DNA of 64,000 nucleotides from Eubacteriales bacterium. GTDB lineage: Bacteria > Bacillota > Clostridia > Lachnospirales > Lachnospiraceae. The notes beneath the pieces are model-generated. The model was not told the origin of the DNA, did not search any database, and saw only the letters and a list, made by a program, of their open reading frames with translations. Every line of letters begins with the position of its first letter. The stretch's first letter is position 1. Position numbers and translations under genes: made by a program. Below, in pieces: positions 3,099 through 61,551 of this stretch. The stretch covers positions 20,130 through 84,129 of the forward strand of contig JAUNNI010000003.1 in assembly GCA_030531555.1 (NCBI GenBank), in the 5' to 3' direction.

Positions 3099-3117
3099 AA
3101 CGAATAGGAGGAATTCC

Positions 3118-3618: not shown

Positions 3619-3646
3619 TTAATTAACGAATATGGAGGTAATATCA

Positions 3647-3907: not shown

Positions 3908-3961
3908 TCCATCAGGGATTGTGGCAGCTTTGGCTGCATGAAAAAGTAAAAGGTTTGTGGT

Positions 3962-5148: not shown

Positions 5149-5179
5149 GGAAGGCTTCTAGACAAATGAAATCAAGGAT

Positions 5180-5216
5180 TACCCTCTTTGTCGCTTTGGC
5201 AAAGAGGGTATTTTTT
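5180..5216 (+). terminator. intrinsic terminator
   Basis: TACCCTCTTTGTC...GGCAAAGAGGGTA followed by T6. Confidence 0.85.
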
Positions 5217-5291
5217 AAAGAATAAAATAGAAATTTTTTCCAAATAAATAATTTTTAACAAGATATATAAGAAGAGAGAAGAATAGATATT

Positions 5292-6860: not shown

Positions 6861-6884
6861 CTTTAGAATAGAAATTAAATAAAC

Positions 6885-6968
6885 AGAGATATTGAAATAA
6901 TACAGACAGTCAGAAAAATAGAGACATTAAACTATACAGATAGTCAGAAAAAAGAGATATTAAAAAAA
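6885..6968 (+). repeat. imperfect ~34-bp tandem repeat, about 2.5 copies
   Basis: AGAGA(T/C)ATT at 6885, 6920 and 6953; TACAGA(C/T)AGTCAGAAAA at 6901 and 6935. Confidence 0.7.
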
Positions 6969-7023
6969 CAAAGTCTTTGTAAAAAAGTTTGAAGAATGAA
7001 TTTGACATAGTGAGGAGAAAAAC

Positions 7024-7803
7024 ATGAAATTTCGTCCATGTATAGATATTCATAATGGAAAAGTAAAACAAATCGTAGGAGGAAGCCTGCTGGATGAAGG
7101 GGACTTCGCGGAGGATAACTTCGTTTCGGAAAAAGATGGGGATTTTTATGCGAACCTGTACAAAAAAGCAGGGTTGATTGGCGGACATATTATTCTGCTG
7201 AACCCTGCAGGCAGTGAATATTATGAAGAAGATGTACGTCAGGCCTGTCTTGCTCTAAAGGCTTATCCTGGTGGGCTTCAGATTGGCGGTGGCATGAATG
7301 CTGACAATGCTGCCTTTTTCTTAGAACAGGGAGCAACCCATATTATCGTTACTTCCTATGTTTTTAAAAATGGAGCCATTAACTGGGAAAACCTTAAAAA
7401 GATGGTAAATGTAACAGGAAAAGAACATTTGGTACTTGATTTAAGCTGCAGAAAAAAAGACGGTCGTTACTATATTGTAACAGACCGTTGGCAGAAATTT
7501 ACGGATGTGCTTTTAAATCGTGAAACCTTGGAACAGTTATCCAGCTACTGCAGTGAGTTTTTAATTCATGCGGTGGACGTAGAAGGGAAGGCCAGCGGAA
7601 TCGAAGAAGAAATCGCAGCACTTCTTGGTGACTGGGATGGCATTCCTGTAACTTATGCCGGAGGCGTTGGATCCTTTGAGGATCTTCGTAAATTAAAAGA
7701 ATTGGGCAAAGGAAAGGTGGATGTGACCATTGGCAGTGCGTTAGATCTTTTTGGGGGAAACATGGCCTTTGAACAGGTGCTTTCTGTGATTGGAGAGCAG
7801 TAG
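7024..7803 (+). CDS. hisA: ProFAR isomerase, His6/eukaryote-like type
   Basis: N-terminus MKFRPCIDIHNGKVKQIVGGSL, plus LQIGGG, HAVDVEG and TIGSALD. Confidence 0.9.
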   Translation: MKFRPCIDIHNGKVKQIVGGSLLDEGDFAEDNFVSEKDGDFYANLYKKAGLIGGHIILLNPAGSEYYEEDVRQACLALKAYPGGLQIGGGMNADNAAFFLEQGATHIIVTSYVFKNGAINWENLKKMVNVTGKEHLVLDLSCRKKDGRYYIVTDRWQKFTDVLLNRETLEQLSSYCSEFLIHAVDVEGKASGIEEEIAALLGDWDGIPVTYAGGVGSFEDLRKLKELGKGKVDVTIGSALDLFGGNMAFEQVLSVIGEQ

Positions 7804-12989: not shown

Positions 12990-13748
12990 ATGGGTAAATT
13001 ATACGCAGTTGGTTTTGGACCAGGCGGCATCGAACACATGACACAGAAAGCGATTGATGTAATCAAAGAAGCTGATGTGATCACAGGATATACAACATAT
13101 GTTGACATGATGAAAAAATACTTCCCGGATAAGGAATACATTTCCACAGCTATGACTAAGGAAATGGATCGTTGCCGTATGGCAGTAGATCTTGCAGAAG
13201 AAGGTAAAACAGTAGCGATGATCAGCTCCGGCGACAGCGGAATCTACGGTATGGCTGGAATTCTTCTTGAAATCAAAAATGAGAAGAAATCTGACGTGGA
13301 AATCGAGACCGTTCCAGGTGTGACAGCAGCAAGTGCAGCAGCTTCCGTTTTAGGTGCTCCTTTAATGCACGATTTTACTGTTATCAGCTTAAGCGACCTT
13401 ATGACACCACTTAACCGCATCATGAAGAGAATCGACTGTGCAGGTCAGGGCGATTTCATCGTATGTCTCTACAATCCAAAGAGCAAAAAACGTGCGGATT
13501 ATTTAAAGAGAGCAGCAGATATTCTTATGATCTACCGTGAAGATGATACACCAGTTGGTGTTGTTCGTAATGCAGGTCGTGAAGACGAATCTTCCTATAT
13601 TACAACACTTGGAGAACTGGAAAATGCACCAGTAGATATGTTCAGTATCGTTATCATTGGTAATTCCAACACTTATGTAAAAGACGGAAAAATGATCACA
13701 CCACGTGGATATCAGGATAAATACGGTTTTGTATCCGACGATAAATAG
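12990..13748 (+). CDS. cbiH: cobalt-factor III/precorrin-3B C17-methyltransferase
   Basis: VGFGPG, SSGDSGIYGMAG, APLMHDF, LYNPKSKKR, MITPRGY. Confidence 0.95.
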   Translation: MGKLYAVGFGPGGIEHMTQKAIDVIKEADVITGYTTYVDMMKKYFPDKEYISTAMTKEMDRCRMAVDLAEEGKTVAMISSGDSGIYGMAGILLEIKNEKKSDVEIETVPGVTAASAAASVLGAPLMHDFTVISLSDLMTPLNRIMKRIDCAGQGDFIVCLYNPKSKKRADYLKRAADILMIYREDDTPVGVVRNAGREDESSYITTLGELENAPVDMFSIVIIGNSNTYVKDGKMITPRGYQDKYGFVSDDK

Positions 13749-13757
13749 GAGGAACAG

Positions 13758-16178
13758 ATGAGTAATTCCATTAAGATTGGCACAAGAAAAAGCCAGCTTG
13801 CTTTGATTCAGACAGAGATTGTAAAGAATCGAATTCTGCAGGCCTTTCCTGAAAAAACAGTGGAAATCGTAAAGATTGACACAAAGGGTGATCAGATTTT
13901 AGATAAATCCCTGACATCTTTTGGCGGTAAGGGTGTATTTACTGCAGAATTAGAAGCAGAGCTCTTATCCGGACAGATTGATATTGCTGTTCACAGTGCG
14001 AAGGATATGCCGATGGAGTTTCCGGAAGGATTAGGAATTGGGGCAGCTTTAGAACGTGCGGACATTCGTGATTGTTTTGTTACAACAAATGGCATGAAAT
14101 TAGCGGATCTTGCACCAGGCAGTATTGTTGGAACCAGCTCCCTTCGCCGTGAGCTTCTCATTAAAGAAATCAATCCATATGTTCAGATTCGTATGCTTCG
14201 TGGCAATGTGCAGACAAGACTTCGCAAATTAAAAGAAGGTCAGTATGACGGTATCATTCTTGCAGCAGCAGGAATTGAACGTCTGGAATACACAGAGATG
14301 GAAGGAGTTCATTTCGAATACATGGATCCGGAACAGTTCCTTCCAGCGGCAGGACAGGGAATTCTTGCGGTGGAATGTCGCGAGGATGACCAGGAGATGG
14401 CAAATGTTTTGGCAGCCATCAATTGTGAAGAAGCAGCATGTCTTCTCGAGGCAGAGCGTAATTTCTTAAAGACCATCGGTGGCAGCTGTAATGCTCCAGC
14501 AGCAGGCTTCTGTAAAGAAAACGATGGCAGCTTCACCATGCATGCCATGTATGTAAAAGATGGTGTTCATGGCAAAAAAGCTGTGAAATCAGTGGAGATT
14601 CCAGAAGGAGCCAGCGCAGAAGAGAAAAAAGCTTTGGCAGGTGACCTTGGAAAATCCATTGCCAAAGAAGTAAATAAAGGCATGGTTTATTTGGTAGGTG
14701 CCGGTCCTGGAGATGAAGATTTATTTACCAGAAAGGGACTTCGTCTCATCCAGCAGGCGGACGTTGTGGTTTATGACAATTTAGCTTCCAGCTCCCTTTT
14801 AAATGAAGTGAGAGACGATGCAGAACTGATCTATGCCGGCAAACGTTCTTCCCACCACCATCTGAAACAGTATGAAACCAATCAGCTCTTAGTTGAGCTT
14901 GCTTTAGAAGGCAAAAATGTAGTTCGTTTAAAAGGTGGAGATCCTTATATTTTCGGCCGTGGCGGCGAAGAAGGACAGGAACTTCGCGAAGCAGGTGTAG
15001 ATTTTGAAGTGGTTCCAGGAATTTCTTCCTCCTACTCCGTACCAGCTTATTGCGGTATTCCGGTAACACACCGTGATTTTGCTTCCTCCTTCCATGTGAT
15101 CACAGGCCATGAAGGCAACCATAAAAACGGAGCTACTGTATTAAATTATGAAACACTGGCTAAAGAAGAAGGTACTTTAATCTTCCTCATGGGCCTTAAA
15201 AACCTTCCAAATATCGTGGCTTCCCTCATGGCAAATGGAAAAGATCCAGAAACACCAGTGGGCGTTCTTCAGGAAGGAACCACTGCAAGACAGCGTGTGG
15301 CAACCGGAAGATTATGCGACATTGTGGAAATTGTAAAAAGAGAAGGCATCCAGACACCAGCCATCACCGTAGTTGGTGATGTGGTAGGTCTTAGAGATGT
15401 GCTTAACTGGTATGGTATGAAGCCATTATCCGGACAGCGTGTCATTGTAACTGGCAGCCGTTCCATGGTGGACCGTTTATCCCCAATTTTAAAAGAGGAG
15501 GGTGCGGAAGCCATTTCCTTCAGCCTCATTCGTACGGAGGCTTTAGAAAGTCCAGAATTTACCAAAGCCATTGAAGAGATTGATACTTATACCTGGGCTG
15601 TGTTCACCAGTGCCAACGGAGTGGATTGTTTCTTTGACAAAATGAAAGAACTCCGCAAAGATATCCGAAGCTTCGCCAATGTGAAATTCGCAGTGATCGG
15701 CGATGGCACAAGAAAGGCTTTGGAAGAGCACGGTATTTTCAGCGACTTTATTCCAACGGCGTATTCTTCCAAAGATATGGCAGAAAGCATGATCCCACTT
15801 CTTAAGAAAGAGGACCGCGTGCTTCTCCTCCGTGCGGAAGAGGCCAATGAAGTCCTTCCAAATGCTTTGGGAGAAGCTGGCATTGACCATACAACCATTT
15901 CCTTATATCACACGGTATATGATATGAGAAAAGCAGAAGAATTGGGACGCCTTGTGAAGTCTGCCGACTATATTACATTTGCAAGTTCCTCTGCAGTGAA
16001 GGCATTTGTGGAAATGGTGGATGACCTTGACAGTGTATGCGGAAAATACATTAGTATCGGTCCGGTTACCACAAAAACAGCAGAAAAGTCTGGCCTTACC
16101 GTGGCAAAGACTGCAATTTCCTACACAGCAAAAGGAATCGTGGACGTCATCCGTCAGGATGTGGAAGAGAATCGATAA
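13758..16178 (+). CDS. hemC-cobA-hemD: trifunctional fusion: hydroxymethylbilane synthase + uroporphyrinogen-III C-methyltransferase + uroporphyrinogen-III synthase
   Basis: HemC: IGTRKSQLA, AVHSAKD, GTSSLRR, RGNVQTR, GGSC. CobA: LVGAGPGD, RLKGGDPYIFGRGGEE, IPVTHR. HemD: VFTSANGV, IGDGT, TFASSSAV, SIGPVT. One uninterrupted ORF. Confidence 0.93.
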   Translation: MSNSIKIGTRKSQLALIQTEIVKNRILQAFPEKTVEIVKIDTKGDQILDKSLTSFGGKGVFTAELEAELLSGQIDIAVHSAKDMPMEFPEGLGIGAALERADIRDCFVTTNGMKLADLAPGSIVGTSSLRRELLIKEINPYVQIRMLRGNVQTRLRKLKEGQYDGIILAAAGIERLEYTEMEGVHFEYMDPEQFLPAAGQGILAVECREDDQEMANVLAAINCEEAACLLEAERNFLKTIGGSCNAPAAGFCKENDGSFTMHAMYVKDGVHGKKAVKSVEIPEGASAEEKKALAGDLGKSIAKEVNKGMVYLVGAGPGDEDLFTRKGLRLIQQADVVVYDNLASSSLLNEVRDDAELIYAGKRSSHHHLKQYETNQLLVELALEGKNVVRLKGGDPYIFGRGGEEGQELREAGVDFEVVPGISSSYSVPAYCGIPVTHRDFASSFHVITGHEGNHKNGATVLNYETLAKEEGTLIFLMGLKNLPNIVASLMANGKDPETPVGVLQEGTTARQRVATGRLCDIVEIVKREGIQTPAITVVGDVVGLRDVLNWYGMKPLSGQRVIVTGSRSMVDRLSPILKEEGAEAISFSLIRTEALESPEFTKAIEEIDTYTWAVFTSANGVDCFFDKMKELRKDIRSFANVKFAVIGDGTRKALEEHGIFSDFIPTAYSSKDMAESMIPLLKKEDRVLLLRAEEANEVLPNALGEAGIDHTTISLYHTVYDMRKAEELGRLVKSADYITFASSSAVKAFVEMVDDLDSVCGKYISIGPVTTKTAEKSGLTVAKTAISYTAKGIVDVIRQDVEENR

Positions 16179-16193
16179 GATAGAGGAAGTAGC

Positions 16194-16991
16194 ATGAAAA
16201 CACAAATCAAACGTTTTTTATTAACCCTTGGATTTATGACAAGAATTCCGGTTAATGTGGACCTTGGAGAAGTCAAGGATGAAGATATGCACAAAGGATT
16301 TCTCTACTATCCGGTGGTGGGTCTTATCATCGGTTTGGTGGATGTCATTGTGTATCTTCTGGTGACTTTGATTCTTCCGGAAATCTTTGGAATTATATTT
16401 GCCATGCTGGCAAATTTCTGTGTGACAGGAGCCTTTCATCTTGATGGGCTTTCTGACACAGCCGATGGCATCTATTCTGCGAGAACCAGAGAACGTATGC
16501 TTGAAATCATGAAGGACAGCCGTATCGGAACGAACGGTGCCATCGCCATGTGCTTTGACATCGCACTTAAGTTCTGTGGGCTTGCCGCTTTTGAAGGTTG
16601 GCAGATTCCTCTGATGATCCTCATGATGCCAATCGCCGGCAAAATGGTTCAGGGTGCCATCGTATATAAAGCAATCTACCCTAGAAAGACAGGAATTGGT
16701 ATTTACGTAGGTACCGTAAGTCTTGGAACTGTCATTGGAACCATGATTTTGGGAATCGTTGCCATGGTGGCAGCATTCTCCTTCTGGGGACTTGGAATAT
16801 TTGCTATTTTATTTATATTTGCCTATCTTTTCCGTGTGTATATCACGGGCAAGATCGGAGGAATTACCGGAGATATCATGGGAGCGGGAAGTGAGCTTAG
16901 TGAAGTTCTTCTTCTCATGGTGGTTCTTGTGATCGTGAGATTCTGGGGATTCCCAATGGGACTTGGCAGTCTTCTCGCCGGGTTATTGTAA
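16194..16991 (+). CDS. cobS: adenosylcobinamide-GDP ribazoletransferase (cobamide synthase)
   Basis: FMTRIP, HLDGLSDTADG, IMKDSRIGTNG, GGITGDIMGA; multi-TM. Confidence 0.95.
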   Translation: MKTQIKRFLLTLGFMTRIPVNVDLGEVKDEDMHKGFLYYPVVGLIIGLVDVIVYLLVTLILPEIFGIIFAMLANFCVTGAFHLDGLSDTADGIYSARTRERMLEIMKDSRIGTNGAIAMCFDIALKFCGLAAFEGWQIPLMILMMPIAGKMVQGAIVYKAIYPRKTGIGIYVGTVSLGTVIGTMILGIVAMVAAFSFWGLGIFAILFIFAYLFRVYITGKIGGITGDIMGAGSELSEVLLLMVVLVIVRFWGFPMGLGSLLAGLL

Positions 16992-17003
16992 CAAGAAAGA
17001 AGG

Positions 17004-18071
17004 ATGAAGATTATGACATTACAGGAAACCATAGAAAAAATCATGCCCCTCGATGAAGAGGCCATGAAATACACCAGAGCAAGATGGAATACTCTTGGAA
17101 AACCACTCTATAGTCTTGGAAGATTAGAAGAGATGGTAATCGATTTTGCCGGAATTTATCGCGATAAGAAACCAACCATTGGAAAAAAAGCAGTGATTGT
17201 TATGGCGGCAGACAACGGTGTTGTGGCAGAAGGTGTAACTCAGACCGGACAGGAAGTTACAAAGACTGTAACAGAAAATATGACAAAGCATAATGCAACC
17301 ATCTGTATTATGTCTGGTATGAGTGGAGCCGATGTATTTCCTGTGGATATCGGGATTGTCACAGATTGCGACAACCCGGGAGTGATTTCCCGCAAGATCA
17401 AATATGGCACAGATAATATGTTAAAAGGATCTGCCATGAGCAGAGAGGAAGCCATCAAGGCCATCGAAGTTGGGATTGAAATGGTGGAAGACTTAAAAGC
17501 AAAGGGTTATACCCTTTTTGCTACCGGTGAAATGGGAATTGGTAATACCACCACTAGTTCTGCTATCTGTTCCGTGCTTTTGGACCAGTCCGTAGAAAAG
17601 GTAACTGGAAAAGGTGCTGGCCTTAGCAGCAAGGATTTGGAGCATAAGATTGAGGTAATCAAAGAAAGTATTGCCATCAATCAGGTCGATAAAAATGATC
17701 CAATCGATGTACTTTCCAAAGTGGGTGGTCTGGATATTGCAGGTCTTGTTGGATGCTTTATCGGTGCAGCAGCACTCAATGTTCCAATCTTTATCGATGG
17801 ATTTATCTCCTCTGTGGCAGCACTCCTTGCAACAAAGATTGCTCCACAATGTTCCCCATATCTTTTCCCATCCCACTGCTCCAACGAGCCAGCCGGACGT
17901 ATGGTTTTAGATGCCATGGGAAAACAGCCTTATATCCTTGCAAATATGTGCCTTGGAGAAGGAACCGGTGCAGTTATGGGATTCACCATCGCAGATTATG
18001 CATTTAAGGCATATTGGGAGCTTCCAAGTTTTGAACAGACGAACTTTGGAACTTATGAGGAATTAGATTAA
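17004..18071 (+). CDS. cobT: nicotinate-nucleotide:lower-ligand base phosphoribosyltransferase
   Basis: KPLYSLGRLE, AADNGV, GEMGIGNTT, DGFIS, LGEGTGA. Confidence 0.95.
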   Translation: MKIMTLQETIEKIMPLDEEAMKYTRARWNTLGKPLYSLGRLEEMVIDFAGIYRDKKPTIGKKAVIVMAADNGVVAEGVTQTGQEVTKTVTENMTKHNATICIMSGMSGADVFPVDIGIVTDCDNPGVISRKIKYGTDNMLKGSAMSREEAIKAIEVGIEMVEDLKAKGYTLFATGEMGIGNTTTSSAICSVLLDQSVEKVTGKGAGLSSKDLEHKIEVIKESIAINQVDKNDPIDVLSKVGGLDIAGLVGCFIGAAALNVPIFIDGFISSVAALLATKIAPQCSPYLFPSHCSNEPAGRMVLDAMGKQPYILANMCLGEGTGAVMGFTIADYAFKAYWELPSFEQTNFGTYEELD

Positions 18072-18105
18072 GAAGAATAGTTTTAGAATAGAAGGATTAA
18101 AACAT

Positions 18106-18732
18106 ATGTTAGATTCAATTCAGATTGTAAAACCTGCAGATATTGAAAAACGCAGTATGGAAATTATTACCAGCGAATTAAATGGCCGCACATGGCCGGA
18201 CCCGGAATTCGGCATTGTAAAACGTTGCATCCATACTTCTGCAGATTTTGATTATGCGGATAATCTTTGTTTTTCCGAAAACGCAGCCAAGCTGGGTATG
18301 GAAGCCATCAAACGTGGTGCTCATATTGTAACAGATACCCGTATGGCATGGTCCGGAATCAATAAAAAGAAATTGGAATCTTTCGGTGGCCAGGCACATT
18401 GCTTCATGTCCGATGAAGATGTGGCAGCGGAAGCCAAAGAAAGAGGATGCACTCGTGCAGCGATCTGCATGGAGAGAGGCGCAGCTTTAGAAGGCGAAGT
18501 GATCTTTGCGGTAGGAAATGCTCCAACTGCTCTCATTCGTCTTTATGAAATGATTGAAGCAGGTCAGGTGAAACCGGCACTGATCATCGGTGCCCCTGTT
18601 GGATTTGTAAATGTTGTGGAATCCAAAGAGCTGATCATGAAGGCTGGAATTCCATTTATCGTACCACGTGGCAGAAAAGGTGGCAGCAATATCGCAGCAA
18701 CCATCTGCAACGCTATGTTATATCAGATTTAG
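18106..18732 (+). CDS. cbiC: cobalt-precorrin-8 methylmutase
   Basis: KRCIHTSADF, AVGNAPTAL, PVGFVNVVESKE, GRKGGS. Confidence 0.95.
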   Translation: MLDSIQIVKPADIEKRSMEIITSELNGRTWPDPEFGIVKRCIHTSADFDYADNLCFSENAAKLGMEAIKRGAHIVTDTRMAWSGINKKKLESFGGQAHCFMSDEDVAAEAKERGCTRAAICMERGAALEGEVIFAVGNAPTALIRLYEMIEAGQVKPALIIGAPVGFVNVVESKELIMKAGIPFIVPRGRKGGSNIAATICNAMLYQI

Positions 18733-30218: not shown

Positions 30219-31187
30219 ATGATTAGAAGAAGAAGATTAAGATCCAGCGCAGGAATGAGAGCATTGGTTCGCGAGACATCCGTAGTTGTTAACGATCTCA
30301 TTTACCCTCTTTTTGTCGTAGAAGGAGAAAACCAGAAGAATCCAATTCCATCCATGCCTGGAATCTATCAGTTCAGCTTAGACCGCATCGATGAAGAATT
30401 GGACCGCATCCGCGAAGCGGGTGTTATGGGTGTTCTTTTATTCGGTATTCCAGAACACAAAGATGAAGTAGGATCCGAAGCTTATAACGAACATGGTATC
30501 ATCCAGGAAGCCATCCGTTATATCAAAAAAGTATTTCCTGAGCTTGTTGTAATCGCTGACATCTGTCTTTGCGAATACACATCCCATGGCCACTGTGGTC
30601 TCATTGAAAATGGAGAAATCTTAAATGATGCGACTCTTCCACTTCTTGCAAAAACAGCGGTAACCTGTGCACAGGCAGGTGCTGACATGGTAGCTCCATC
30701 CAACATGATGGATGGTCATGTAGAGGCAATCCGTGAAGCATTGGATGAAGCAGGTCTTCAGACAACACCAATCATGGCTTACAGTGCAAAAATGGCTTCC
30801 GGTTACTACGGACCATTCCGTGATGCAGCACATTCCGCACCAGGATTTGGCGATCGTAAAACTTACCAGATGGATTACCATAACCCAAGAGAAGCAATGC
30901 GTGATATCTGGGATGATATTGATGAAGGTGCTGACATCATCATCGTTAAACCAGCACTCGCTTACCTTGATATCTTAAAAACAGCTTCCATGGAAACCAA
31001 TATGCCTCTTGCAGCATACAATGTAAGTGGGGAATACTCCATCGTAAAAGCTGCAGCAGCCAACGGCTGGGTAGATGAAAAGAAACTGGTTATGGAAAAT
31101 ATGATCGGTATGAAACGTGCCGGCGCACAGATGATCATCACTTACCACGCACTTGATGTGGCAAAATGGATCAAAGAAGGATATTAA
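30219..31187 (+). CDS. hemB: porphobilinogen synthase
   Basis: RRLR, DICLCEYTSHGHCG (Zn site), APSNMMDG, YSAK...YGPFRDA, VKP, AYNVSGEY. Confidence 0.97.
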   Translation: MIRRRRLRSSAGMRALVRETSVVVNDLIYPLFVVEGENQKNPIPSMPGIYQFSLDRIDEELDRIREAGVMGVLLFGIPEHKDEVGSEAYNEHGIIQEAIRYIKKVFPELVVIADICLCEYTSHGHCGLIENGEILNDATLPLLAKTAVTCAQAGADMVAPSNMMDGHVEAIREALDEAGLQTTPIMAYSAKMASGYYGPFRDAAHSAPGFGDRKTYQMDYHNPREAMRDIWDDIDEGADIIIVKPALAYLDILKTASMETNMPLAAYNVSGEYSIVKAAAANGWVDEKKLVMENMIGMKRAGAQMIITYHALDVAKWIKEGY

Positions 31188-31215
31188 GAAAAATTCAAAT
31201 CGTTACTTTTTTACG

Positions 31216-31249
31216 ACAGGCCCATGTAATGAACATGGGTCTGTTTTTT
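31216..31249 (+). terminator. intrinsic terminator after hemB
   Basis: ACAGGCCCATGT-AATGA-ACATGGGTCTGT followed by a T run. Confidence 0.85.
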
Positions 31250-31358
31250 GTAAAATTATCGTAAAAATAATGTGTTGAAAAGATATGTTTTCGTAGTATA
31301 TAATACTAAATTGATGGAATTTTAGTGAAATATTTAAAATAGAATAGGAAGAGAAGAT

Positions 31359-32249
31359 ATGATTCATTCAATGAAAAGAGGAAGTGCCCGTTTTCTTTTC
31401 AGTGCGATTTTTTTGGGGATTCTTCTCCTTCTTCTGGGGCTTTTTGTCTCCACTGGCATTTATTCCGGAGTGAAATTCTCCGAGGAGAAAGGAATGACAA
31501 AAATTTATCTGGAAAGGAAGCGTTTTTTTGCGGATCAATGTCAGGCATTATCCATAGAAGGAAAGTGTTTGATTATAAAAGAAGGGGGAATCTATCAATT
31601 ATCCGGCATCATGGATGATGGTCAGATTATTGTGGATGCGGATAAAGAGGAGAAAATCACTTTGAAATTAGACTCCGTTGATATCACTTGTAAAGATTCT
31701 GCTCCTCTGTTTGTGAAATCTGCAGATCAGGTGGTAATCAAATTAAAAAAGGGCAGTGTTAATTATTTTAGAGATGGTTCGGAATATAAAGAAGTGGCCG
31801 ACGGAAAGATTCAGCCTAGAGCCTGTATCGATTCCAGAGAAGATCTAAAGATTAAAGGTCCTTATGGAAGCCTTATCGTGGAAGGCAATTATAAACATGG
31901 AATCTGCAGCAGTGATGATCTCAAAATAAAAAGTGGTAACATAGAGATTCATGCAGTAAATACTGCATTAAAAGGCAAAGATTCTGTGAAAATCATCGAT
32001 GGAAAGCTGGTATTAGATGCTGGAAAAGATGGAATCTATAGTGATCAAATTGTCAGGTTAGAAAAAGGACAGATTGCCATCAAAGCAAGTCGCTATGGAA
32101 TCTTTGGCAGAGAAAGTTTGAATTTTTCTACGGATTGTCAGGTTACCATAGAGGGAAGCCTGTCCCCGGTGGCAGGAAATGATTTTCTTGCATTGCCAGA
32201 ATCCATTCAGATCATAGAAAATAGTGAACCAACAGATTCAAAAGAATAG
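31359..32249 (+). CDS. Cthe_2159/DUF4353-like beta-helix carbohydrate-binding protein, N-terminal membrane anchor
   Basis: GIYQLSG...GQIIVDA, APLFVKSA, ACIDSREDLKI, GNYKHGICSSDDLKI, DGIYS; hydrophobic N-terminus. Confidence 0.82.
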   Translation: MIHSMKRGSARFLFSAIFLGILLLLLGLFVSTGIYSGVKFSEEKGMTKIYLERKRFFADQCQALSIEGKCLIIKEGGIYQLSGIMDDGQIIVDADKEEKITLKLDSVDITCKDSAPLFVKSADQVVIKLKKGSVNYFRDGSEYKEVADGKIQPRACIDSREDLKIKGPYGSLIVEGNYKHGICSSDDLKIKSGNIEIHAVNTALKGKDSVKIIDGKLVLDAGKDGIYSDQIVRLEKGQIAIKASRYGIFGRESLNFSTDCQVTIEGSLSPVAGNDFLALPESIQIIENSEPTDSKE

Positions 32250-32260
32250 AAGGAAAAACG

Positions 32261-33073
32261 ATGGCAGATATAACAGTATTTCAAAGACATGAGAAAAAGT
32301 TTTTGATGGATGTGGAGACCATGGAAAGAATCCTTCCTGAAATCAAAAAACATATGGATCCTGATAAGTATTGCCAAAATGGACGGACTTATGCCATCAG
32401 TAACCTGTATTTTGATACAGAAAATAATGATGTGATTCGGGAATCTTTACAAAAACCATTTTATAAAGAAAAATTACGAATGCGCTGCTACGGTGTACCC
32501 AAAAACGACCAGTCGCAGGTGTTTTTGGAAATTAAAAAGAAAGTCAATAAGGTTGTGACAAAGCGCCGCGTCAAATTAACATACGGAGAGGCAAAACTCT
32601 TTCTCTATTATGGAATCTTTCCAGAGACGGATGATTATATGACCAATCAGGTGCTGAAAGAGATTCAGTATTATCTGACCCATAAAAATGTATATGCTTC
32701 CACCAGGATTTCCTATGACAGGCATGCATTTTTTGATCGGGAGGACAGTAGTTTTCGTCTGACTTTTGATGAGAATCTTTTTTATTTGAAAGGAGAATGT
32801 CCCGACAATATCAAAGATTTTATCAAAGGGCTTGCAAAGCCTGGTGGTGTAAATTATCAGGATTCCCGCAAAGGAAAGCGAATTATACCGGAACATCTTC
32901 GTCTGATGGAGGTTAAGGTGAGCAATGCTTATCCCATGTGGTTTGCCAGACTTTTGAGCGATGATGGGATTTTTGCCACATCTTTTTCCAAATATGGGGT
33001 GTCCTACAAACACGAACTGTTAAATGATGAATCTTTTGATTCTGAAATGTTTGATGTCTTATCTCATATTTAA
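32261..33073 (+). CDS. VTC/polyphosphate polymerase domain protein (CYTH-like tunnel fold)
   Basis: RHEKKF (ExK), NLYFDT, EKLRMRCY, FLEIKKK, KRR, YDRHAF, RLTFD, LMEVK, FSKY. Confidence 0.88.
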   Translation: MADITVFQRHEKKFLMDVETMERILPEIKKHMDPDKYCQNGRTYAISNLYFDTENNDVIRESLQKPFYKEKLRMRCYGVPKNDQSQVFLEIKKKVNKVVTKRRVKLTYGEAKLFLYYGIFPETDDYMTNQVLKEIQYYLTHKNVYASTRISYDRHAFFDREDSSFRLTFDENLFYLKGECPDNIKDFIKGLAKPGGVNYQDSRKGKRIIPEHLRLMEVKVSNAYPMWFARLLSDDGIFATSFSKYGVSYKHELLNDESFDSEMFDVLSHI

Positions 33074-33135
33074 AAGGCAGATCATGGAAAAGAGAAAATT
33101 AAAAAGAGAAATATGAATCGAAAAAGGAGAAAATT

Positions 33136-33852
33136 ATGTTATTAGCAAATGGATTGCTTTCTGTATTTGATGCAGATATTGCAATGAATGTCAGCCCAAT
33201 GAGCTTTTTACTGATCTTACTATCTTCCATCTTATGTGGCTTAGTAATCAGCGGGGCATATGTTTTTCATAAAAGAAATGATGTGTTACAAGGCGGAATG
33301 GCCATTGTCATGGTAATTGTTCCAGCCGCCGCAGGTATTGTTATTATGCTGGTCGGAAGAAATATCGCAGCAGCCCTTGGCTTAAGTGGTATCTTCGTTT
33401 TAGTTCGTTTTCGAAGTGCAGCGGTGGAAAGCAAGGATTTGGGTTATCTTTTTGTATCCATTTGCTCCGGAGTCTTAAATGGTTGTGGCTACGTGGCCTA
33501 TGCCATTATATTTACAGGTATTTTAGTGCTTCTGATTTCTGTTTTAGAGTTCGCAGGCTGGGGGCAGACCAGTGGAAAGCCGATGTTGTTGAAGATTTGG
33601 GTGCCGGAATCCCTTGATTTTCAGGGAGTATTTGAACCGGTTTTACGCCAGCATACGGAAGAATATACGCTTCTTATGGTGCGTACCACTGATTTTGGTT
33701 CCAATTGTGAACTTCGATATCGTCTGATTCCCAAAAAAGATATGAAACAGAAACAGCTTTTGGATGATATTCGTACTAGAAATGGCAATATGAATGTGGT
33801 GCTGATCATCGCTCCTCAGATTGTGGAGCGAAATAGTAAACAGGTATTATAA
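33136..33852 (+). CDS. DUF4956 family membrane protein
   Basis: IVIMLVGRNIAAALGLSGIFVLVRFRSA...SKDLGY, followed by a C-terminal ACT-like region (ELRYRL); adjacent to the VTC gene. Confidence 0.88.
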   Translation: MLLANGLLSVFDADIAMNVSPMSFLLILLSSILCGLVISGAYVFHKRNDVLQGGMAIVMVIVPAAAGIVIMLVGRNIAAALGLSGIFVLVRFRSAAVESKDLGYLFVSICSGVLNGCGYVAYAIIFTGILVLLISVLEFAGWGQTSGKPMLLKIWVPESLDFQGVFEPVLRQHTEEYTLLMVRTTDFGSNCELRYRLIPKKDMKQKQLLDDIRTRNGNMNVVLIIAPQIVERNSKQVL

Positions 33853-34752
33853 ATGAGAAGAAAACGAAAGTTTTTTATGAAAAATAACAAAGGGTATCTG
33901 GTTCTGCTTCTCATGATGATTCTGGCAGCTGCCTGTTTTGGCCTGTTAAAAGAAGTTACCAGATATGGCAAAGATGAAAAGGAAGCCGGTAAGCGAAATT
34001 ATGGGGTCATGGAGGTAATCTGCCCGAAACTTAGTGAGAGTGCAGATGCTTTTCTGATCTTGGAAGGAAAGCATGCAATTTTGATTGATACTGGTGTGAC
34101 TCAGGATACAGAAACTCTTCTTGCCATGTTGGAGCAATACGAGGTGAATCATTTGGATGCCCTGATTCTTACCCATTATGATAAAGATCACATCGGAGGT
34201 GCTGCAGGGGTACTCAAAGCTCTTACTGTGGAAAAGTGCTATATGACCTGTGGCTCGGAAGATAGTGCAGAGTATAGAGCATTTATGGATGCTTTAGTAG
34301 AAAATGGGGCGGAGCAGATTCTTCCAACAACAACCCTTACTGTACAAAATCAGGATAGTAGCTATACAATCTATCCACCGCTATCTTATACCTATGAAAA
34401 AAACAATGACAACAATCGTTCCCTGATTGTCACATTTTCCTATGAAGGAAAACACCTTCTTTTTGCGGGGGATGCGCAAGGATTGCGTATGAACGAGTAT
34501 TTAAAACAGCAATATGATGGCAGCTCTTTTGATTTTGTGAAGATTCCTCATCATGGAAGAAATAAAAAGCCGGTGGAACTGCTGCTGAAAAAAGGGATTC
34601 CTTCTCTTGCGTTAATTACTTCGTCAGAGGAAGAGCCGGCGGACGAAGATCTTGTGGAACAATTAAATCAAGCTGGAATCACTGTGGCTTATCCAAAAGA
34701 TGGGAATGTCATTGTTCAGGTTGATCAGGAAGGAATTCGATTTCTTCCGTAG
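33853..34752 (+). CDS. ComEC/Rec2-like metallo-beta-lactamase-fold hydrolase, membrane anchored
   Basis: ILIDTG, LILTHYDKDHIGG, NDNNRS, LFAGDA, KIPHHG; N-terminal TM helix. Confidence 0.85.
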   Translation: MRRKRKFFMKNNKGYLVLLLMMILAAACFGLLKEVTRYGKDEKEAGKRNYGVMEVICPKLSESADAFLILEGKHAILIDTGVTQDTETLLAMLEQYEVNHLDALILTHYDKDHIGGAAGVLKALTVEKCYMTCGSEDSAEYRAFMDALVENGAEQILPTTTLTVQNQDSSYTIYPPLSYTYEKNNDNNRSLIVTFSYEGKHLLFAGDAQGLRMNEYLKQQYDGSSFDFVKIPHHGRNKKPVELLLKKGIPSLALITSSEEEPADEDLVEQLNQAGITVAYPKDGNVIVQVDQEGIRFLP

Positions 34753-34766
34753 AAATGGAGTGAAAA

Positions 34767-36821
34767 TTGAAAAATCGAAGAATAAAAGAAAAACATATGG
34801 TATGTGCTCTGGCTCTATGTCTTGTGACTTTCTTTCTTGTGGCCTGCGCTTCCATGAATTCTTCCAATAAACAAACAGAAGAGACAAAAGAAGTTCTACG
34901 AAAAGAACCGGTCTTTTCCAAGGCAAGTGGCTTTTACAGTAAGGAAGTAACTCTTAGCATGGAGGCGGAAGAAGGAACGAAAATCTATTATACTTTAGAC
35001 AGCACTACTCCAACCGTAAAATCTAGTGAGTATCAAGGGGAAATCCTTTTAAAAGATCCTTCCTCTGAGCCCAATCGTTATGCCTATACGCCAGAATTTT
35101 CCCCATATCGAACAGAGCCTGCTGCAGCAGGAGAGCCTCAGGTGGCTCCCGGCTATTATGCCCGCTATGAATCTTTAAAAAAAGAAGTTGATAAATGTGT
35201 GGTTGTCCGTGCCATAGCTGTGGACGCAGATGGCAATACCAGCCCGGTAAAAACGGCTACTTATTTTATAGATTATGAGAAAAAAAGTGGTTATACGGGC
35301 ATTTCTGTACTTTCTGTTGTGACAGATCCCGACGGCTTGTTTGGTGATGAGAATGGAATCATGGTAAATGGCAAAAAGTACAAAGAGGCATTGGCCAGTG
35401 GCAAATTAAATGGAATCACAGATACCCATATCTTAAGAGAGTACACCAATGCTTTTACCGGTAGAGGAAGAGATTGGGAACGAGAGGTTCATGTGGATTA
35501 TTTTGCAGAAGGCGGGCAGGATCTTACATTTTCTCAGGAGGCAGGGATTCGCCTCCATGGAAATCAGTCCCGTGTTGCGGAAGAACAAAAATCCTTTAAT
35601 CTTTATGCCAGAAAAGAATACGATGGCAATAAAACATTTTTAAGTCCTTTTTATGGGGATGGCATCCTCTCTGATCGAATTACCCTCATGAAGGGGGATG
35701 ATATTCTAAACTATTATCTTTCTGATGCGATAGATGATCCCGATGCCCATTCTCAGAAATATACCATGACCCAGCTTTTTATTGATGGGGAATACTGGGG
35801 ACTTTATGCCATTCAGGAACGTTATAACAGCAAGGAATATATGAAAACCCGTTATGGATTAGCGAAAGGGGAGTACAGTTTATTTTCCGGGCAACACTAT
35901 GGATTCGACTATAAAAAAGGAGATAAAAATGCGACAAAAACATCCTTACATCTTCTTAGAGATTATATTCAAACCCATGATTTGTCTGACGAAAAGGAAT
36001 ACAAGAAGCTTTCTTCCATGATGGATGTGGATAGCTTTATCCGTCATTATGCTCTCCATCTCTATATCAATGACCAGGATTGGAGCTGGCATAAGAATCT
36101 GTATATTATGCTTCACCATAATAAATGGTATTGGCTGCCTTATGATCTTGATTATGGCGCAGGCAGCCATGATAATTCCAAAGCTTATATTAACAGCTTT
36201 ACTTGCAACCGCCTTACGGGAATAGATTCTTTGAGAACAGATCCCTTTTTCCCATATTTGATAAAAAATAAGGACTTCTGTAACCAGTTTATCCAGACTT
36301 TCCTGGACTTCTCTAACGAAATCTTCCGAAAAGATCTGGTGGAAAAGGATAAAAAAGCCTTTCTTTCCAGTTACAAGGATGCTATTGCCAAAAGTGTGGC
36401 ACGCTATCCTGGTCAGGAGAGAGAAGGAATCATGCAGGGATGCAGCTGTTATGAGGCATGCTGGAACAATACCGTGTCCTTTTTTGCACAGCGTCCGGAT
36501 TATGCGATTTCTCAGCTGAAAGATTATTTTGGAATCGCTCAGCCACTTGTCAAGGTGATTGTGAAGGTAAATGATTGTCAAGGTGGCAGTATTCATTTTA
36601 ACAGCATCTGTCCAAATCTTGGGGAGAAGGGCAGCTGGAGTGGCTCTTACTTTGCAAATATTCCAGTGAAACTTACTGCCAAGCCAAAAGATGGATGGAA
36701 ATTTGTCGGGTGGCAATGCGAAGGTGGAAAAGTGCTGGATGATAGCAATCCTTCCACAAGTCTTACTTTTGAAAGTAATGTTACGGTGACCGCAATTTTT
36801 GAGAATATGTCCCAAAATTAA
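34767..36821 (+). CDS. CotH-family kinase, predicted lipoprotein, with chitobiase/FN3-like and B-repeat-like accessory domains
   Basis: Lipobox LVAC; PVFSKASGFY and IYYTLDSTTP; kinase motifs GIRLHGNQSR, KSFNL, YWGLYAIQER, NDQDWSWHKN, PYDLDY; C-terminal LTAKPKDGWKFVGW. Confidence 0.85.
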   Translation: MKNRRIKEKHMVCALALCLVTFFLVACASMNSSNKQTEETKEVLRKEPVFSKASGFYSKEVTLSMEAEEGTKIYYTLDSTTPTVKSSEYQGEILLKDPSSEPNRYAYTPEFSPYRTEPAAAGEPQVAPGYYARYESLKKEVDKCVVVRAIAVDADGNTSPVKTATYFIDYEKKSGYTGISVLSVVTDPDGLFGDENGIMVNGKKYKEALASGKLNGITDTHILREYTNAFTGRGRDWEREVHVDYFAEGGQDLTFSQEAGIRLHGNQSRVAEEQKSFNLYARKEYDGNKTFLSPFYGDGILSDRITLMKGDDILNYYLSDAIDDPDAHSQKYTMTQLFIDGEYWGLYAIQERYNSKEYMKTRYGLAKGEYSLFSGQHYGFDYKKGDKNATKTSLHLLRDYIQTHDLSDEKEYKKLSSMMDVDSFIRHYALHLYINDQDWSWHKNLYIMLHHNKWYWLPYDLDYGAGSHDNSKAYINSFTCNRLTGIDSLRTDPFFPYLIKNKDFCNQFIQTFLDFSNEIFRKDLVEKDKKAFLSSYKDAIAKSVARYPGQEREGIMQGCSCYEACWNNTVSFFAQRPDYAISQLKDYFGIAQPLVKVIVKVNDCQGGSIHFNSICPNLGEKGSWSGSYFANIPVKLTAKPKDGWKFVGWQCEGGKVLDDSNPSTSLTFESNVTVTAIFENMSQN

Positions 36822-36833
36822 TAATTGGAATGG

Positions 36834-36878
36834 TTGACGTGTGACACCCTGTCATATATAATGTGTGACAGGGTGTCA
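36834..36878 (+). promoter_or_regulatory. sigma-A promoter overlapped by a double palindromic operator (probably TetR)
   Basis: TTGACG (36834-39)-N17-TATAAT (36857-62). TGACACCCTGTCA (36842-54) and TGACAGGGTGTCA (36866-78) are exact inverted copies. Confidence 0.85.
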
Positions 36879-36951
36879 TTTTGTGCTTTTTACCTTGGCA
36901 CATTGTATGACACAAGGAGTATATAGAAGAAAGGCAAAGAGGAAGAAAAAG

Positions 36952-40967: not shown

Positions 40968-41597
40968 ATGCCAAAAGATACATTTTATCGTCTGCCTGAC
41001 GAAAAAAGAGAACGTATTCTTAATGCGGCAAAAAATGAATTCTTCCGCGTTCCTTATGGACAGGCTTCCATCAATCAGATCATAAAGAATGCGGATATCC
41101 CAAGAGGAAGCTTTTATCAGTATTTTGAGGACAAGAAAGATATCTTCTTATACGTGCTGTCAGAGCAACATGATACCATTGTCAGTGCTGTTTTTGAAAA
41201 ATTATCCAGAGTAAATGGAGATATCTTTCGTCTGGTCGATTTTTATATCGATAAAATTGCTGCATTATATCAAAAGGAAAACTGTGCAAGATTCCTTGAT
41301 ACCTTTCTCAACAAAGAGACTTGTTGTGTGATCGACGGCATCATACGAGGGGAAGGAATCTATGATTGCATGGAAGAGAAATTAGAAAATAAATTGTTAG
41401 AAGATACCGATTTTTCTTTGTATGATATGGAAAATGATGAGGAAAAACGATATTTCCTTAATATCATCAGTGCAGTTCTTCGGGACAGCATGAGAAAGTT
41501 GGTTCGTATTGAAGTTGAGAGAGACCCTCTTGAAATCTGTGACCAGTTGAAAAAAAGAATGCTTTTTCTGGAAAAGCGATTTCGAAAAATATCATAA
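40968..41597 (+). CDS. TetR/AcrR family regulator
   Basis: MPKDTFYRLPDEKRERIL, ASINQIIKNADIPRGSFYQYFEDKKD. Confidence 0.93.
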   Translation: MPKDTFYRLPDEKRERILNAAKNEFFRVPYGQASINQIIKNADIPRGSFYQYFEDKKDIFLYVLSEQHDTIVSAVFEKLSRVNGDIFRLVDFYIDKIAALYQKENCARFLDTFLNKETCCVIDGIIRGEGIYDCMEEKLENKLLEDTDFSLYDMENDEEKRYFLNIISAVLRDSMRKLVRIEVERDPLEICDQLKKRMLFLEKRFRKIS

Positions 41598-43243: not shown

Positions 43244-45112
43244 ATGGCATTTATTATTATATTATTAAAAACTTTTATCTTTTATTGGCAGACGGATCGA
43301 CTAGATATGATGTCTGTTTGGGAAGTGCCGCTCCTGACTATCTTATTTTTTGTATGTCTTTGGTTTTTCTGTAAAGGAAGAGGACGAGTCGGGGCAGTAC
43401 TGTTTTACGTTATATATACCTTTTTTACCATCCTGATGCTGATGGATGCCGCTTATAGTAGTTATTTTGGCAAATATATCTCTGTGAATCAGTTGTATCA
43501 GCTAGGTAGCCTAAGTCAGATTGCCGGAGATGGAAATGTGATTGGTGCAGCGGTGAATCCGCTATGTGTTTTAACCTTGCTTGATTTGCCAATCATGTTC
43601 TTTTTCTTTCATCGACATAGGAATCATGATGGAAAAAAAGAGAAGGATTCCAACAAGAATGAGAAAAAAATCAGAGTATGGAAGATTGGAAAAAGAATCA
43701 TCCATCTTGCTGTTTATGTCATATCGGTGATTTCTTTTATTTATTATGGATTTAATTTCACCGAAGAACGTTATGTACAAAAAGTGAACCATATCGAATT
43801 TTTTACCTATCATACTAACGATCTTCTGGTTAATGTTGGGGGGAGAATTCGACGAAGAAATGTAGATGAGACGGATATTCAGAACAGAATGAAAGAAGTA
43901 GTCCCACAGTCAGAAGGCGAGAATTACCAGGGAATCGCCAAAGGAAAGAATCTGATCCTAATTCAGATTGAATCTTTTAACGATTTTGTCATTGGTGCGG
44001 AATATAATGGGCAGACCTTAACTCCAAATATCAACGCTTTGTTGAAAAAAGACACTTTCTATTTTGATCGATTCTATTCTACTACCGGTGTTGGCAATAC
44101 CTGTGATGCAGAATTTGCAACCTTAAATAGTCTATATCCCAATGAAATTCGAGAATGTTACCGTATGTACGTGGATAATACCTACCAAGGTCTTCCATGG
44201 ATGCTTCGTGAGCAGGGCTATTCTACCATGGCATTCCATGGCTATGTGAAAACTTTCTGGAATCGAGATGAAGCTTACAAAAATCAGGGAATTCAACGAT
44301 ACTATTCCCAGGATGATTTTGATATGACAGAAATATCTGGTTTTGGTCTGACGGATAAGAAAATGTTCCGGCAGGCAGTGGACATCTTGAAGACAAAGCA
44401 AGAGCCATTTTTCAGCTATATGATTACTTTAACCAATCATATCCCATATGATATGCCGCAGGAACTGGCAAGTCTTACTTTGAAAGAGGAAGATAAGAAT
44501 ACCACATTTGGCAGATATCTTCAGACCATCCGTTATACAGATGAGGCAATTGGGGAATTGATTGAAGAACTGAAGGAAGCAGGACTTTACGACAATACGA
44601 TGATTGCATTCTACGGGGACCATCAGGGCCTTAATAAAGAGACTCCGGAAGTACAGAGATCCATGACCAGATATCTGGGAAAAGAGTATGGTTTTGATGA
44701 GATGCTGAAGATTCCTTTGGTGATCCATATCCCTGGAATGGGAGAAAGTAAGACCATCACAACGGTGGGGGGAGAAATTGATACCATGCCAACCCTGGCC
44801 AATCTTATGGGACTTGAGCTTCCTCAGCCTTATGTGTTAGGGCATGATCTTCTGAACACCAAAGAAGGTTTTCTGGCGCAGATTTCCTATATAGGAAAAG
44901 GATCTTTTATCGATGGAAGCAGTGAACAGATTTTTGAAATCGGAAAAGATGGCTCTGTGGAAAACGGGCAGGTTTATCACATTCCAGATGGAAGCTCCAT
45001 GAACCTTAATATGGAGTTATGTATGAAAAATAGTGTGCGTGCCTTAAAACTTTTGGAACTGAGCAGAGAGATTTTGGATAATAATCTGATTGCAAATTAT
45101 GTGACACATTAA
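43244..45112 (+). CDS. LTA synthase family (LtaS-like sulfatase)
   Basis: N-terminal TM helices, QIESF, GNTCDAEF (catalytic Thr), FHG...FWNR, TNHIPY, YGDH. Confidence 0.88.
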   Translation: MAFIIILLKTFIFYWQTDRLDMMSVWEVPLLTILFFVCLWFFCKGRGRVGAVLFYVIYTFFTILMLMDAAYSSYFGKYISVNQLYQLGSLSQIAGDGNVIGAAVNPLCVLTLLDLPIMFFFFHRHRNHDGKKEKDSNKNEKKIRVWKIGKRIIHLAVYVISVISFIYYGFNFTEERYVQKVNHIEFFTYHTNDLLVNVGGRIRRRNVDETDIQNRMKEVVPQSEGENYQGIAKGKNLILIQIESFNDFVIGAEYNGQTLTPNINALLKKDTFYFDRFYSTTGVGNTCDAEFATLNSLYPNEIRECYRMYVDNTYQGLPWMLREQGYSTMAFHGYVKTFWNRDEAYKNQGIQRYYSQDDFDMTEISGFGLTDKKMFRQAVDILKTKQEPFFSYMITLTNHIPYDMPQELASLTLKEEDKNTTFGRYLQTIRYTDEAIGELIEELKEAGLYDNTMIAFYGDHQGLNKETPEVQRSMTRYLGKEYGFDEMLKIPLVIHIPGMGESKTITTVGGEIDTMPTLANLMGLELPQPYVLGHDLLNTKEGFLAQISYIGKGSFIDGSSEQIFEIGKDGSVENGQVYHIPDGSSMNLNMELCMKNSVRALKLLELSREILDNNLIANYVTH

Positions 45113-61355: not shown

Positions 61356-61363
61356 GTAAAAAT

Positions 61364-61551
61364 CTGACCCGAAATGCCGCATCCTGCAATTTTGAGTCCT
61401 AGCCAAGCTAGGTGGGTAACCGCAATCACGTTCCTGACTTCCACTGGAAGATAAAAATGAGGCCTGTCATTCCGGTGATTATTATGTTTCCCGAGTTCAA
61501 AAATGTAGGTTCAAAATAACAAGATTATATCGAACACCCCAGGCTATTTAT
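61364..61551 (-). ncRNA. ssrS: 6S RNA
   Basis: Minus strand reads CCTGGGGTGTTCG...TTGAACC...TGAACTCGGGA...GCGGTTACCCACCT...CAAAA...GCGGCATTTCGGG, resembling clostridial 6S RNA. About 185 nt, with its own TTGTCA-N17-TATATT promoter and a terminator. Confidence 0.82.

Follow-up and report, generated by a model that had tools for sequence, protein, structure and literature searches.

A conserved five-gene module in Clostridia combining a putative polyphosphate polymerase and its DUF4956 partner with predicted exported CotH, metallo-beta-lactamase-fold and Cthe_2159-like proteins

Positions 31359-36821 of a 64,000-nucleotide stretch of contig JAUNNI010000003.1 from a Lachnospiraceae bacterium (this whole stretch is hereafter called the window) carry five open reading frames (ORFs) on the plus strand, separated by intergenic gaps of 11, 62, 0 and 14 bp, that encode a Cthe_2159-like protein, a VTC-type tunnel enzyme, a DUF4956 membrane protein, a metallo-beta-lactamase-fold protein (MBL) and a CotH kinase. 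A first-pass annotation, made from the DNA letters alone, had described a tight co-directional block of these five families; the coordinates and gaps bear this out, and all five products matched their Pfam families above the cut-offs. We are confident that these genes constitute a conserved unit of function. This module consists of two sub-modules, VTC with DUF4956 and CotH with Cthe_2159 (with or without the MBL), which have been joined repeatedly in different orders. The genes are as follows:

31359-32249, plus strand: Cthe_2159-family gene, 296 amino acids (Pfam PF14262)
32261-33073, plus strand: VTC gene, 270 amino acids (Pfam PF09359)
33136-33852, plus strand: DUF4956 gene, 238 amino acids (Pfam PF16316)
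33853-34752, plus strand: MBL gene, 299 amino acids (Pfam Lactamase_B)
34767-36821, plus strand: CotH gene, 684 amino acids, TTG start with a GGAG ribosome-binding site (Pfam PF08757)

Scanning one genome per species with a VTC profile yielded a census of 80 loci from 80 species. At locus L001, whose VTC protein is 64% identical to that of the window, the five-gene order and the flanking genes are syntenic with the window, and a second lineage (L002, L003 and L006, an Oscillospiraceae metagenome-assembled genome; 57% VTC identity) carries all five in identical order between flanks unrelated to those of the window (TGT/YajC upstream and YgjP downstream). Because the order is kept at 57% VTC identity with unrelated flanks, chance juxtaposition can be excluded. 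The DUF4956-MBL junction measures 0 bp in the window and in L001, and the two genes overlap in L002. DUF4956 lies directly 3' of VTC in 78 of the 80 species, frequently with overlapping stop and start codons, the remainder being truncated contigs, and a Pfam-confirmed Cthe_2159-family gene, mostly immediately downstream and encoding 450-800 amino acids, is located within 7 kb of VTC in 43/80 species. The genes are thus co-conserved, and the co-occurrence of VTC, DUF4956 and CotH in other genomes, which the first-pass annotation had mentioned, is borne out by this census as well as by published work.

At least three gene orders combine CotH with the core, namely that of the window, CotH-Cthe_2159-VTC-DUF4956, and VTC-DUF4956-Cthe_2159-giant CotH, the last in four species (L038, L042, L058 and L064). 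A subfamily-specific CotH profile missed the Pfam-confirmed giant CotH of L058, and the profile was iterated with two seeds. These giant proteins are about 1,750 amino acids long and contain F5/8 type C domains; their genes lie immediately 3' of VTC-DUF4956-Cthe_2159 (for example, at 13224-18458 of L058). Further loci inspected for CotH were arranged as follows:

L086: Cthe_2159-VTC-DUF4956-MBL::CotH, in which MBL and CotH form one 949-amino-acid protein with a signal anchor, a THYDKDHIGG motif and an acidic linker
L087: CotH-Cthe_2159-VTC-DUF4956 in a Lachnospiraceae genome
L088, 8001-14786: CotH near LicC/choline-kinase, IspD-like and LicD genes
L089, 8001-11324: CotH-Cthe_2159 pair after exopolysaccharide (EPS) genes (GT2, pyruvyl transferase, flippase), without VTC
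L090, 6968-15610: CotH near GtrA, a sulfatase-like protein, a second CotH and MBOAT
L091: CotH homologue with no informative neighbors

Fusions of MBL and CotH occur in at least nine close CotH orthologues, some of them inside the same module, and since the two are one polypeptide in these relatives, MBL and CotH work as a unit. Such surface-glycopolymer neighborhoods, which are frequent for clostridial CotH paralogues, provide hints that these exported CotH proteins act on glycans rather than proteins. Three natural VTC-DUF4956 fusions (P0382, P0428 and P0320) have both domains truncated and were judged to be deletion or assembly artefacts.

The VTC protein matches Pfam PF09359 with 166.5 bits (cut-off 23; E-value 1e-48) over profile positions 1-232 of 235, lacks any hydrophobic or transmembrane (TM) segment, and over its 270 amino acids has a Pfam match to the VTC domain only and none to SPX. 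Based on a family profile built from 23 homologues and its alignment to yeast Vtc4 (3g3q; E-value 5e-10), K13 corresponds to Vtc4 K200, and R73/R75 to R264/R266, all three residues being invariant in the 23 homologues. The role of Vtc4 K200 was reportedly described by Hothorn and colleagues in 2009. The R264A/R266A/E426N variant of Vtc4 is a catalytically impaired mutant (PMC9911596). A likely counterpart of E426, an acidic metal ligand, is the invariant E217 in the strand MEVKV, the hidden Markov model (HMM) alignment having ended at profile position 179. With the AlphaFold2 (AF2) model (pLDDT 84.9) as the Foldseek query against the PDB, the best 13 matches were all tunnel domains of Vtc4, Vtc2 or Vtc3 (E-values 2e-15 to 1.6e-12, TM-scores 0.61-0.70), and generic CYTH/triphosphate tunnel metalloenzyme (TTM) entries appeared only from 5e-8, seven orders of magnitude behind. 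The conserved Vtc4 residues and the fold match identify the window protein as a stand-alone VTC-type tunnel domain without SPX or TM domain, in agreement with the soluble enzyme with basic tunnel motifs first described. By analogy with Vtc4, which makes polyphosphate (polyP) from ATP, the protein is most likely a polyphosphate polymerase.

Its neighbor belongs to a large family (7,453 clusters at 50% identity, E<=1e-3). The Pfam DUF4956 match (PF16316; 52.1 bits, cut-off 30.6; 8e-14) covers the membrane region only (residues 35-138); hydropathy indicates four or five hydrophobic helices in the protein. In the AF2 model (pLDDT 80.8) helices span residues 21-45, 55-73, 75-92, 99-116 and 120-140, and residues 150-225 then form a beta-alpha-beta-beta-alpha-beta domain, for which Foldseek returned weak ACT/PII-type matches (IlvN, the Ser33 ACT domain and SbtB). 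Hydropathy and charge distribution suggest that the N-terminus lies outside and the C-terminus inside the cell. The model and these weak fold matches agree with the multi-TM protein with a cytoplasmic ACT-like tail proposed at the outset. Among the invariant residues are those of an RFRS motif (R91-S94), located where the third helix is predicted to reach the cytoplasm, as well as D210, R213, N216 and N218 in the tail. Sub-threshold Pfam MgtC (PF02308) matches were found in 6 of 36 DUF4956 homologues (best 0.004), and P0309, a DUF4956 homologue, matched MgtC at 6e-4 (20.5 bits, below the cut-off of 31.4); the window protein itself had no MgtC match at E<=10. This points weakly to a resemblance to MgtC, not to membership of that family.

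The other three proteins are predicted to be exported, as had been suggested: the short-form Cthe_2159-like protein has an N-terminal anchor or signal sequence (hydrophobic segment at residues 12-30; mature isoelectric point (pI) 5.35), and the MBL (lipobox ILAAAC) and CotH (FLVAC) are predicted lipoproteins. The MBL (Pfam Lactamase_B, 57.5 bits, cut-off 22.7; 2e-15) retains the metal motifs THYDKDH (HxDxDH) and PHHG (HHG). Its nearest solved structures are the ComEC-type competence protein 9ic4 (2.6e-11), ComEC 9vc6 (1e-8) and 30bt, followed by the pneumococcal teichoic-acid phosphorylcholine esterase Pce/CbpE (1wra/2bib; 1e-5), and the NCBIfam model ComEC_Rec2 matches the MBL region at 5e-17. 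By these similarities it classifies as a ComEC/Pce-type phosphodiesterase of the metallo-beta-lactamase fold, and an action on phospho-groups, as first suggested, is consistent with ComEC nuclease domains and Pce being its nearest solved relatives. A class B beta-lactamase identity was rejected, the best NCBIfam match (blaAHM) scoring 139.8 bits against a cut-off of 590 and the others falling far below.

CotH (Pfam CotH, 92.4 bits, cut-off 23.8; 5e-26) additionally contains N-terminal CHB_HEX_C_1/Fn3_assoc and C-terminal Flg_new_2 domains, and its family profile matched Bacillus cereus CotH (5jd9) at 2e-7. D438 and D460 correspond to D228 (catalytic) and D251 (metal-binding) of B. subtilis CotH, both of which have been validated by experiment; among 25 homologues, D438 is aspartate in 21 and N444 and D460 are conserved in all 25, with K275 and E342 likewise conserved. 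From these residues we predict a catalytically intact kinase. The TTG start at 34767 yields a positively charged n-region and a lipoprotein signal peptide ending in FLVAC, and has a better ribosome-binding site than the alternative ATG at 34797 chosen by the gene caller (P0121). No cotB- or cotG-like gene is present in the operon. The Cthe_2159-like protein matches PF14262 with 186 bits (cut-off 25.8; 9e-55) and aligns over residues 46-250 with the crystal structure 4peu (E-value 5e-36). Anaerobic gut fungi are the sole fungi in which the Pfam domains Cthe_2159 and CotH both occur, Cthe_2159 having been acquired from rumen Clostridiales (PMC6712302); genes of these two families are also paired, and conserved as a pair, in the bacterial loci that we examined.

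Parts of this gene set have been published, so that the module is less novel than initially assumed. In streptococci, clostridia and bifidobacteria, Gram-positive Pel loci include an accessory block in which the cotH, polyphosphate-polymerase and DUF4956 genes are contiguous and are accompanied by DUF4832 (Whitfield et al., 2020, PMC7112168), and the necrotic-enteritis locus NELoc-2 of Clostridium perfringens encodes VTC, a membrane protein annotated as 'tubulin/FtsZ' and CotH (PMC2879425). In Streptococcus intermedius, where SIR_1591-1594 are Pel accessory genes studied genetically in 2025, deletion of SIR_1592 (DUF4956-type) or SIR_1594 (CotH) reduced aggregation in artificial sputum medium by more than 50% and altered Pel levels; the same authors described the streptococcal DUF4956 homologue as MgtC-plus-ACT and reported no occurrence of the trio away from Pel loci (PMC12345266). 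We find it outside Pel loci in the window and at L002, L086 and L087. A Pfam scan of 27 window ORFs of at least 145 amino acids, including all those between 29020 and 50032, identified no pel-type genes (pelDEADAFG), EPS synthase or DUF4832. The literature that we searched contained no biochemical characterization of a bacterial VTC-domain protein, a DUF4956 protein or a secreted bacterial CotH; the original statement that the module lacks a biochemical description thus still appears true, and it is the implied novelty of the gene set that these publications (PMC7112168, PMC12345266, PMC2879425) take away.

As a working model, we propose that the two sub-modules act on opposite faces of the membrane. 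At the cytoplasmic face, the soluble VTC tunnel enzyme, docked on its near-obligate DUF4956 partner, would polymerize polyP from ATP, and the polymer, or phosphoryl groups derived from it, would cross to the outer face via DUF4956. There CotH, having no ATP supply outside the cell, would draw on the polymer or phosphoryl groups to transfer phosphate to a glycopolymer or protein of the cell surface, the MBL lipoprotein would cleave or trim phospho-linkages, and the anchored Cthe_2159 beta-helix would hold the polymer substrate. The two-compartment arrangement is the best-supported reading, and the proposed link between the two faces rests on the predicted topology, the conservation of catalytic residues and the repeated genomic joining of the two sub-modules. 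Gene order, family membership, co-conservation and the MBL-CotH fusion are observed, whereas the polymerase activity of VTC, its contact with DUF4956, export of any kind and the identities of phosphoryl donor and substrate are inferred. We advance export coupled to extracellular phosphorylation, the likeliest of the mechanisms considered, tentatively and at less than even confidence.

Several results weigh against this model. None of the yeast VTC membrane-subunit chains was among the top 50 Foldseek PDB matches of the DUF4956 model, and at E<=10 Pfam recognized DUF4956 alone in the window protein, with no Vtc1/3/4 membrane domain. DUF4956 was accordingly rejected as a homologue of the yeast VTC channel, to which it has no detectable fold or sequence similarity, and given the weak MgtC resemblance in its place, the split VTC complex envisaged in the first-pass annotation is at best an analogy. 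MgtC, moreover, is known as a regulator and not as a channel (PMC12345266). No clean full-length VTC-DUF4956 fusion was found. Most VTC-DUF4956 pairs sampled lack a CotH gene within 7-10 kb, one having been located at 9 of about 83 distinct loci, a lower bound, and many CotH paralogues have no VTC nearby. The VTC-linked Cthe_2159 proteins have a median pI of 4.3 (48 proteins), which disfavors direct electrostatic binding of polyP by the beta-helix, and binding would need cation bridging. Finally, deletion of SIR_1593 (VTC) in S. intermedius was not reported to cause the aggregation defect seen for CotH and the DUF4956-type protein (PMC12345266).

Much of this evidence fits an explanation that we regard as doubtful yet serious, in which VTC and DUF4956 form a cytoplasmic phosphate or polyP homeostasis unit, DUF4956 serving as an MgtC-like anchor or regulator that senses a ligand via its ACT-like domain. 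PolyP would then stay inside the cell, and the exported trio would independently modify or scavenge a phosphorylated polymer at the surface, such as a teichoic-acid-like polymer, EPS or extracellular DNA, under shared phosphate-linked regulation. The MgtC-like architecture, with its sub-threshold matches in DUF4956 homologues, and the same reading published for the streptococcal protein (PMC12345266) favor it, as does the VTC deletion, for which no aggregation defect was reported. The VTC-DUF4956 pair is also found alone, often without an exported partner nearby, CotH-Cthe_2159 pairs and lone CotH genes occur in glycopolymer loci without VTC, and the MBL relatives include a teichoic-acid phosphorylcholine esterase. 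Against this, the sub-modules have been joined repeatedly and in several orders, the stop-start coupling between DUF4956 and the MBL gene is tight, and an exported kinase still requires an extracellular phosphoryl donor. It is quite unlikely that the VTC protein is instead another TTM enzyme (a tri- or polyphosphatase, or a nucleotide-processing or signaling enzyme) whose product or activity is sensed or relayed by DUF4956 so as to control the surface enzymes. Triphosphatases and cyclases also belong to the TTM superfamily and supply the next-best structural matches, the protein lacks SPX and TM domains, and the bacterial family has an invariant glutamate, E11, in its first strand (R-x-E-K-K) where Vtc4 has threonine. 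This residue recalls the ExExK motif of hydrolytic TTMs. Yet the Vtc4/2/3 domains lead the generic TTMs by those seven orders of magnitude in E-value, and the K200, R264 and R266 equivalents are invariant throughout the bacterial family.

Very unlikely, in our estimation, is a scheme in which CotH is a protein kinase that regulates EPS production or another envelope process, VTC and DUF4956 being accessory only. Such a role was proposed for the Pel-linked CotH (PMC7112168), Bacillus CotH is a proven Ser kinase, and deletion of CotH alters Pel levels and aggregation (PMC12345266). However, neither pel nor any other EPS synthase gene is among the scanned ORFs of the window, the lipobox indicates that CotH sits outside the cell, apart from ATP and cytoplasmic regulators, and its accessory domains are of glycan-binding type and its paralogues lie among glycan-modifying genes. 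That the five genes are neighbors by chance or through lineage-specific synteny, with no common function, is barely credible given that the order is kept with different flanks, that the partners recur over 80 species and that MBL and CotH are fused in relatives.

The module has a GC content of 0.37-0.44, near that of the adjoining genes, and is flanked in the window by a cobalamin/heme cluster on one side and RND transporter and TetR genes on the other. The hairpin with its T-run after hemB and the RND promoter-like site, which had been taken as its boundaries, are present, as is a promoter candidate for the operon, all as consensus matches only:

30219-31187: hemB, upstream neighbor of the module
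31215-31245, plus strand: terminator-like hairpin 3' of hemB, upstream boundary of the module (13-bp stem with 6 GC pairs, then TTTTTGT; pattern match only)
31275-31304, plus strand: sigma-70-like promoter candidate for the operon, TTGAAA-18-TATAAT (11/12 consensus, 55 bp 5' of the first ATG; pattern match only)
36834-36862: promoter-like site before the RND gene, TTGACG-17-TATAAT (consensus match only)
36841-36879, plus strand: palindrome GTGACACCCTGTCA...TGACAGGGTGTCAT followed by a T-run (18-pair stem), overlapping the -10 element of the RND promoter-like site
40968-41597: TetR-family gene, downstream of the RND gene

The palindrome possibly marks the downstream boundary, as operon terminator, TetR operator or both; the TetR gene just 3' of the RND gene makes an operator probable. 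The most probable start codon of the RND ORF is ATG 36933 (MTKLF...), not the GTG at 36865 given by the ORF finder. The module region contains no tandem repeats, and an Rfam scan of the whole window revealed no riboswitch or other RNA element upstream of the module; its sole match was a 6S/SsrS RNA gene at 61362-61548 on the minus strand (RF00013, 65.8 bits; gathering score 46.4). About 6 kb 3' of the module, 43244-45112 encodes a 622-amino-acid protein in which a sulfatase-family domain (residues 235-523) is accompanied by a long N-terminal region, a layout similar to that of LtaS-type lipoteichoic-acid synthases, and we found nothing that ties this gene to the module. An 819-amino-acid protein with bacterial Ig-like domains (Big_13 and Big_3_3), encoded at 21-2480, is probably a surface protein; its ORF start lies near the window edge and may be unreliable.

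Two neighborhood associations were also considered. A response regulator of OmpR type and a histidine kinase with HAMP/HisKA domains lie near VTC-DUF4956(-Cthe_2159) in 17 of the 80 loci (for example, L068 13905-14594 and L047 5688-7163); NCBIfam gave only generic OmpR/WalK/PhoR-class matches, all below the cut-offs, which single out neither a PhoPR-like nor another specific system, and no two-component system occurs near the module in the window. In the window (8135-31187) and in L001 (1-8987) the module adjoins the end of a cobalamin/heme biosynthesis cluster, and in L087 it lies, reshuffled, within a cobalamin cluster (1-7546 and 13004-18535). Since no cob genes are found near the other VTC loci among the 80, a link to cobalamin was rejected and the proximity is treated as a probable coincidence.

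The module bears on two questions, namely how an exported bacterial kinase obtains its phosphoryl donor and whether bacteria possess a VTC-type polyP polymerase that operates with a membrane partner. The comparative facts that are new here are the near-obligate pairing of VTC with DUF4956, Cthe_2159 as the commonest third partner, the stand-alone CotH-Cthe_2159 pairing and the MBL-CotH fusion. The VTC-DUF4956 pair is widespread and common in gut and rumen Clostridia, homologous trios affect Pel-dependent aggregation in an opportunistic streptococcus and occur in the necrotic-enteritis locus of C. perfringens, and the present locus shows the trio independent of Pel. That Cthe_2159 is the most frequent third partner suggests that the natural ligand of this family may be a polymer of the bacterial surface rather than the plant cell wall. 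In its most specific form, which we consider unlikely though worth stating, the proposed model would make VTC/DUF4956 a widespread polyP synthase-exporter supplying surface polyP as phosphoryl or energy currency for a CotH-MBL pair that builds or edits phosphate decorations on a Cthe_2159-held polymer. If true, it would be the first dedicated bacterial extracellular phosphorylation system independent of ATP outside the cell, and with only five proteins the module offers a compact setting in which extracellular polyP and surface phosphorylation, should they occur, can be tested.

Each component can be set against a characterized relative. The yeast VTC complex (PDB 7ytj, 8i6v) has a homologous catalytic domain, and the window VTC is likewise encoded beside a dedicated membrane protein, a gene arrangement compatible with synthesis coupled to the membrane; the window enzyme is, however, separate, soluble and without SPX, its membrane partner is DUF4956, and the proposed destination of the product is the cell exterior instead of the vacuole. 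With the Bacillus spore-coat Ser kinase CotH (5jd9/5jda) the window CotH shares the kinase domain and the equivalents of D228 and D251, whereas it is a lipoprotein with glycan-binding-type domains, is predicted to be extracytoplasmic in vegetative cells, and is fused to the MBL in relatives. The MBL resembles the MBL domain of ComEC and Pce in its HxDxDH and HHG motifs and its predicted extracytoplasmic location, the phosphodiester substrates being those of the relatives, but is a stand-alone lipoprotein without the ComEC channel or choline-binding repeats. DUF4956 has the layout of MgtC/SapB, with an ACT-like domain C-terminal to a helical membrane domain, and differs in its invariant RFRS and DxxRxxNGN motifs and its near-obligatory VTC neighbor. 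The Cthe_2159-like protein is a direct homologue, of similar size, of the C. thermocellum beta-helix (4peu), which is reported to bind cellulose and polygalacturonic acid; unlike that protein, it is membrane-anchored and encoded in a phosphate/kinase operon rather than in a plant-cell-wall context. The system closest in gene content is the Pel accessory set, which has the same contiguous co-directional genes for a secreted CotH, a soluble VTC protein and an ACT-tailed protein with about 4-5 TM segments. Among the scanned ORFs of the window, pelDEADAFG and the DUF4832 glycoside hydrolase are missing, while a Cthe_2159 beta-helix and a ComEC/Pce-type MBL are added, and the absence of pel genes marks the locus as a Pel-independent variant with two extra components.

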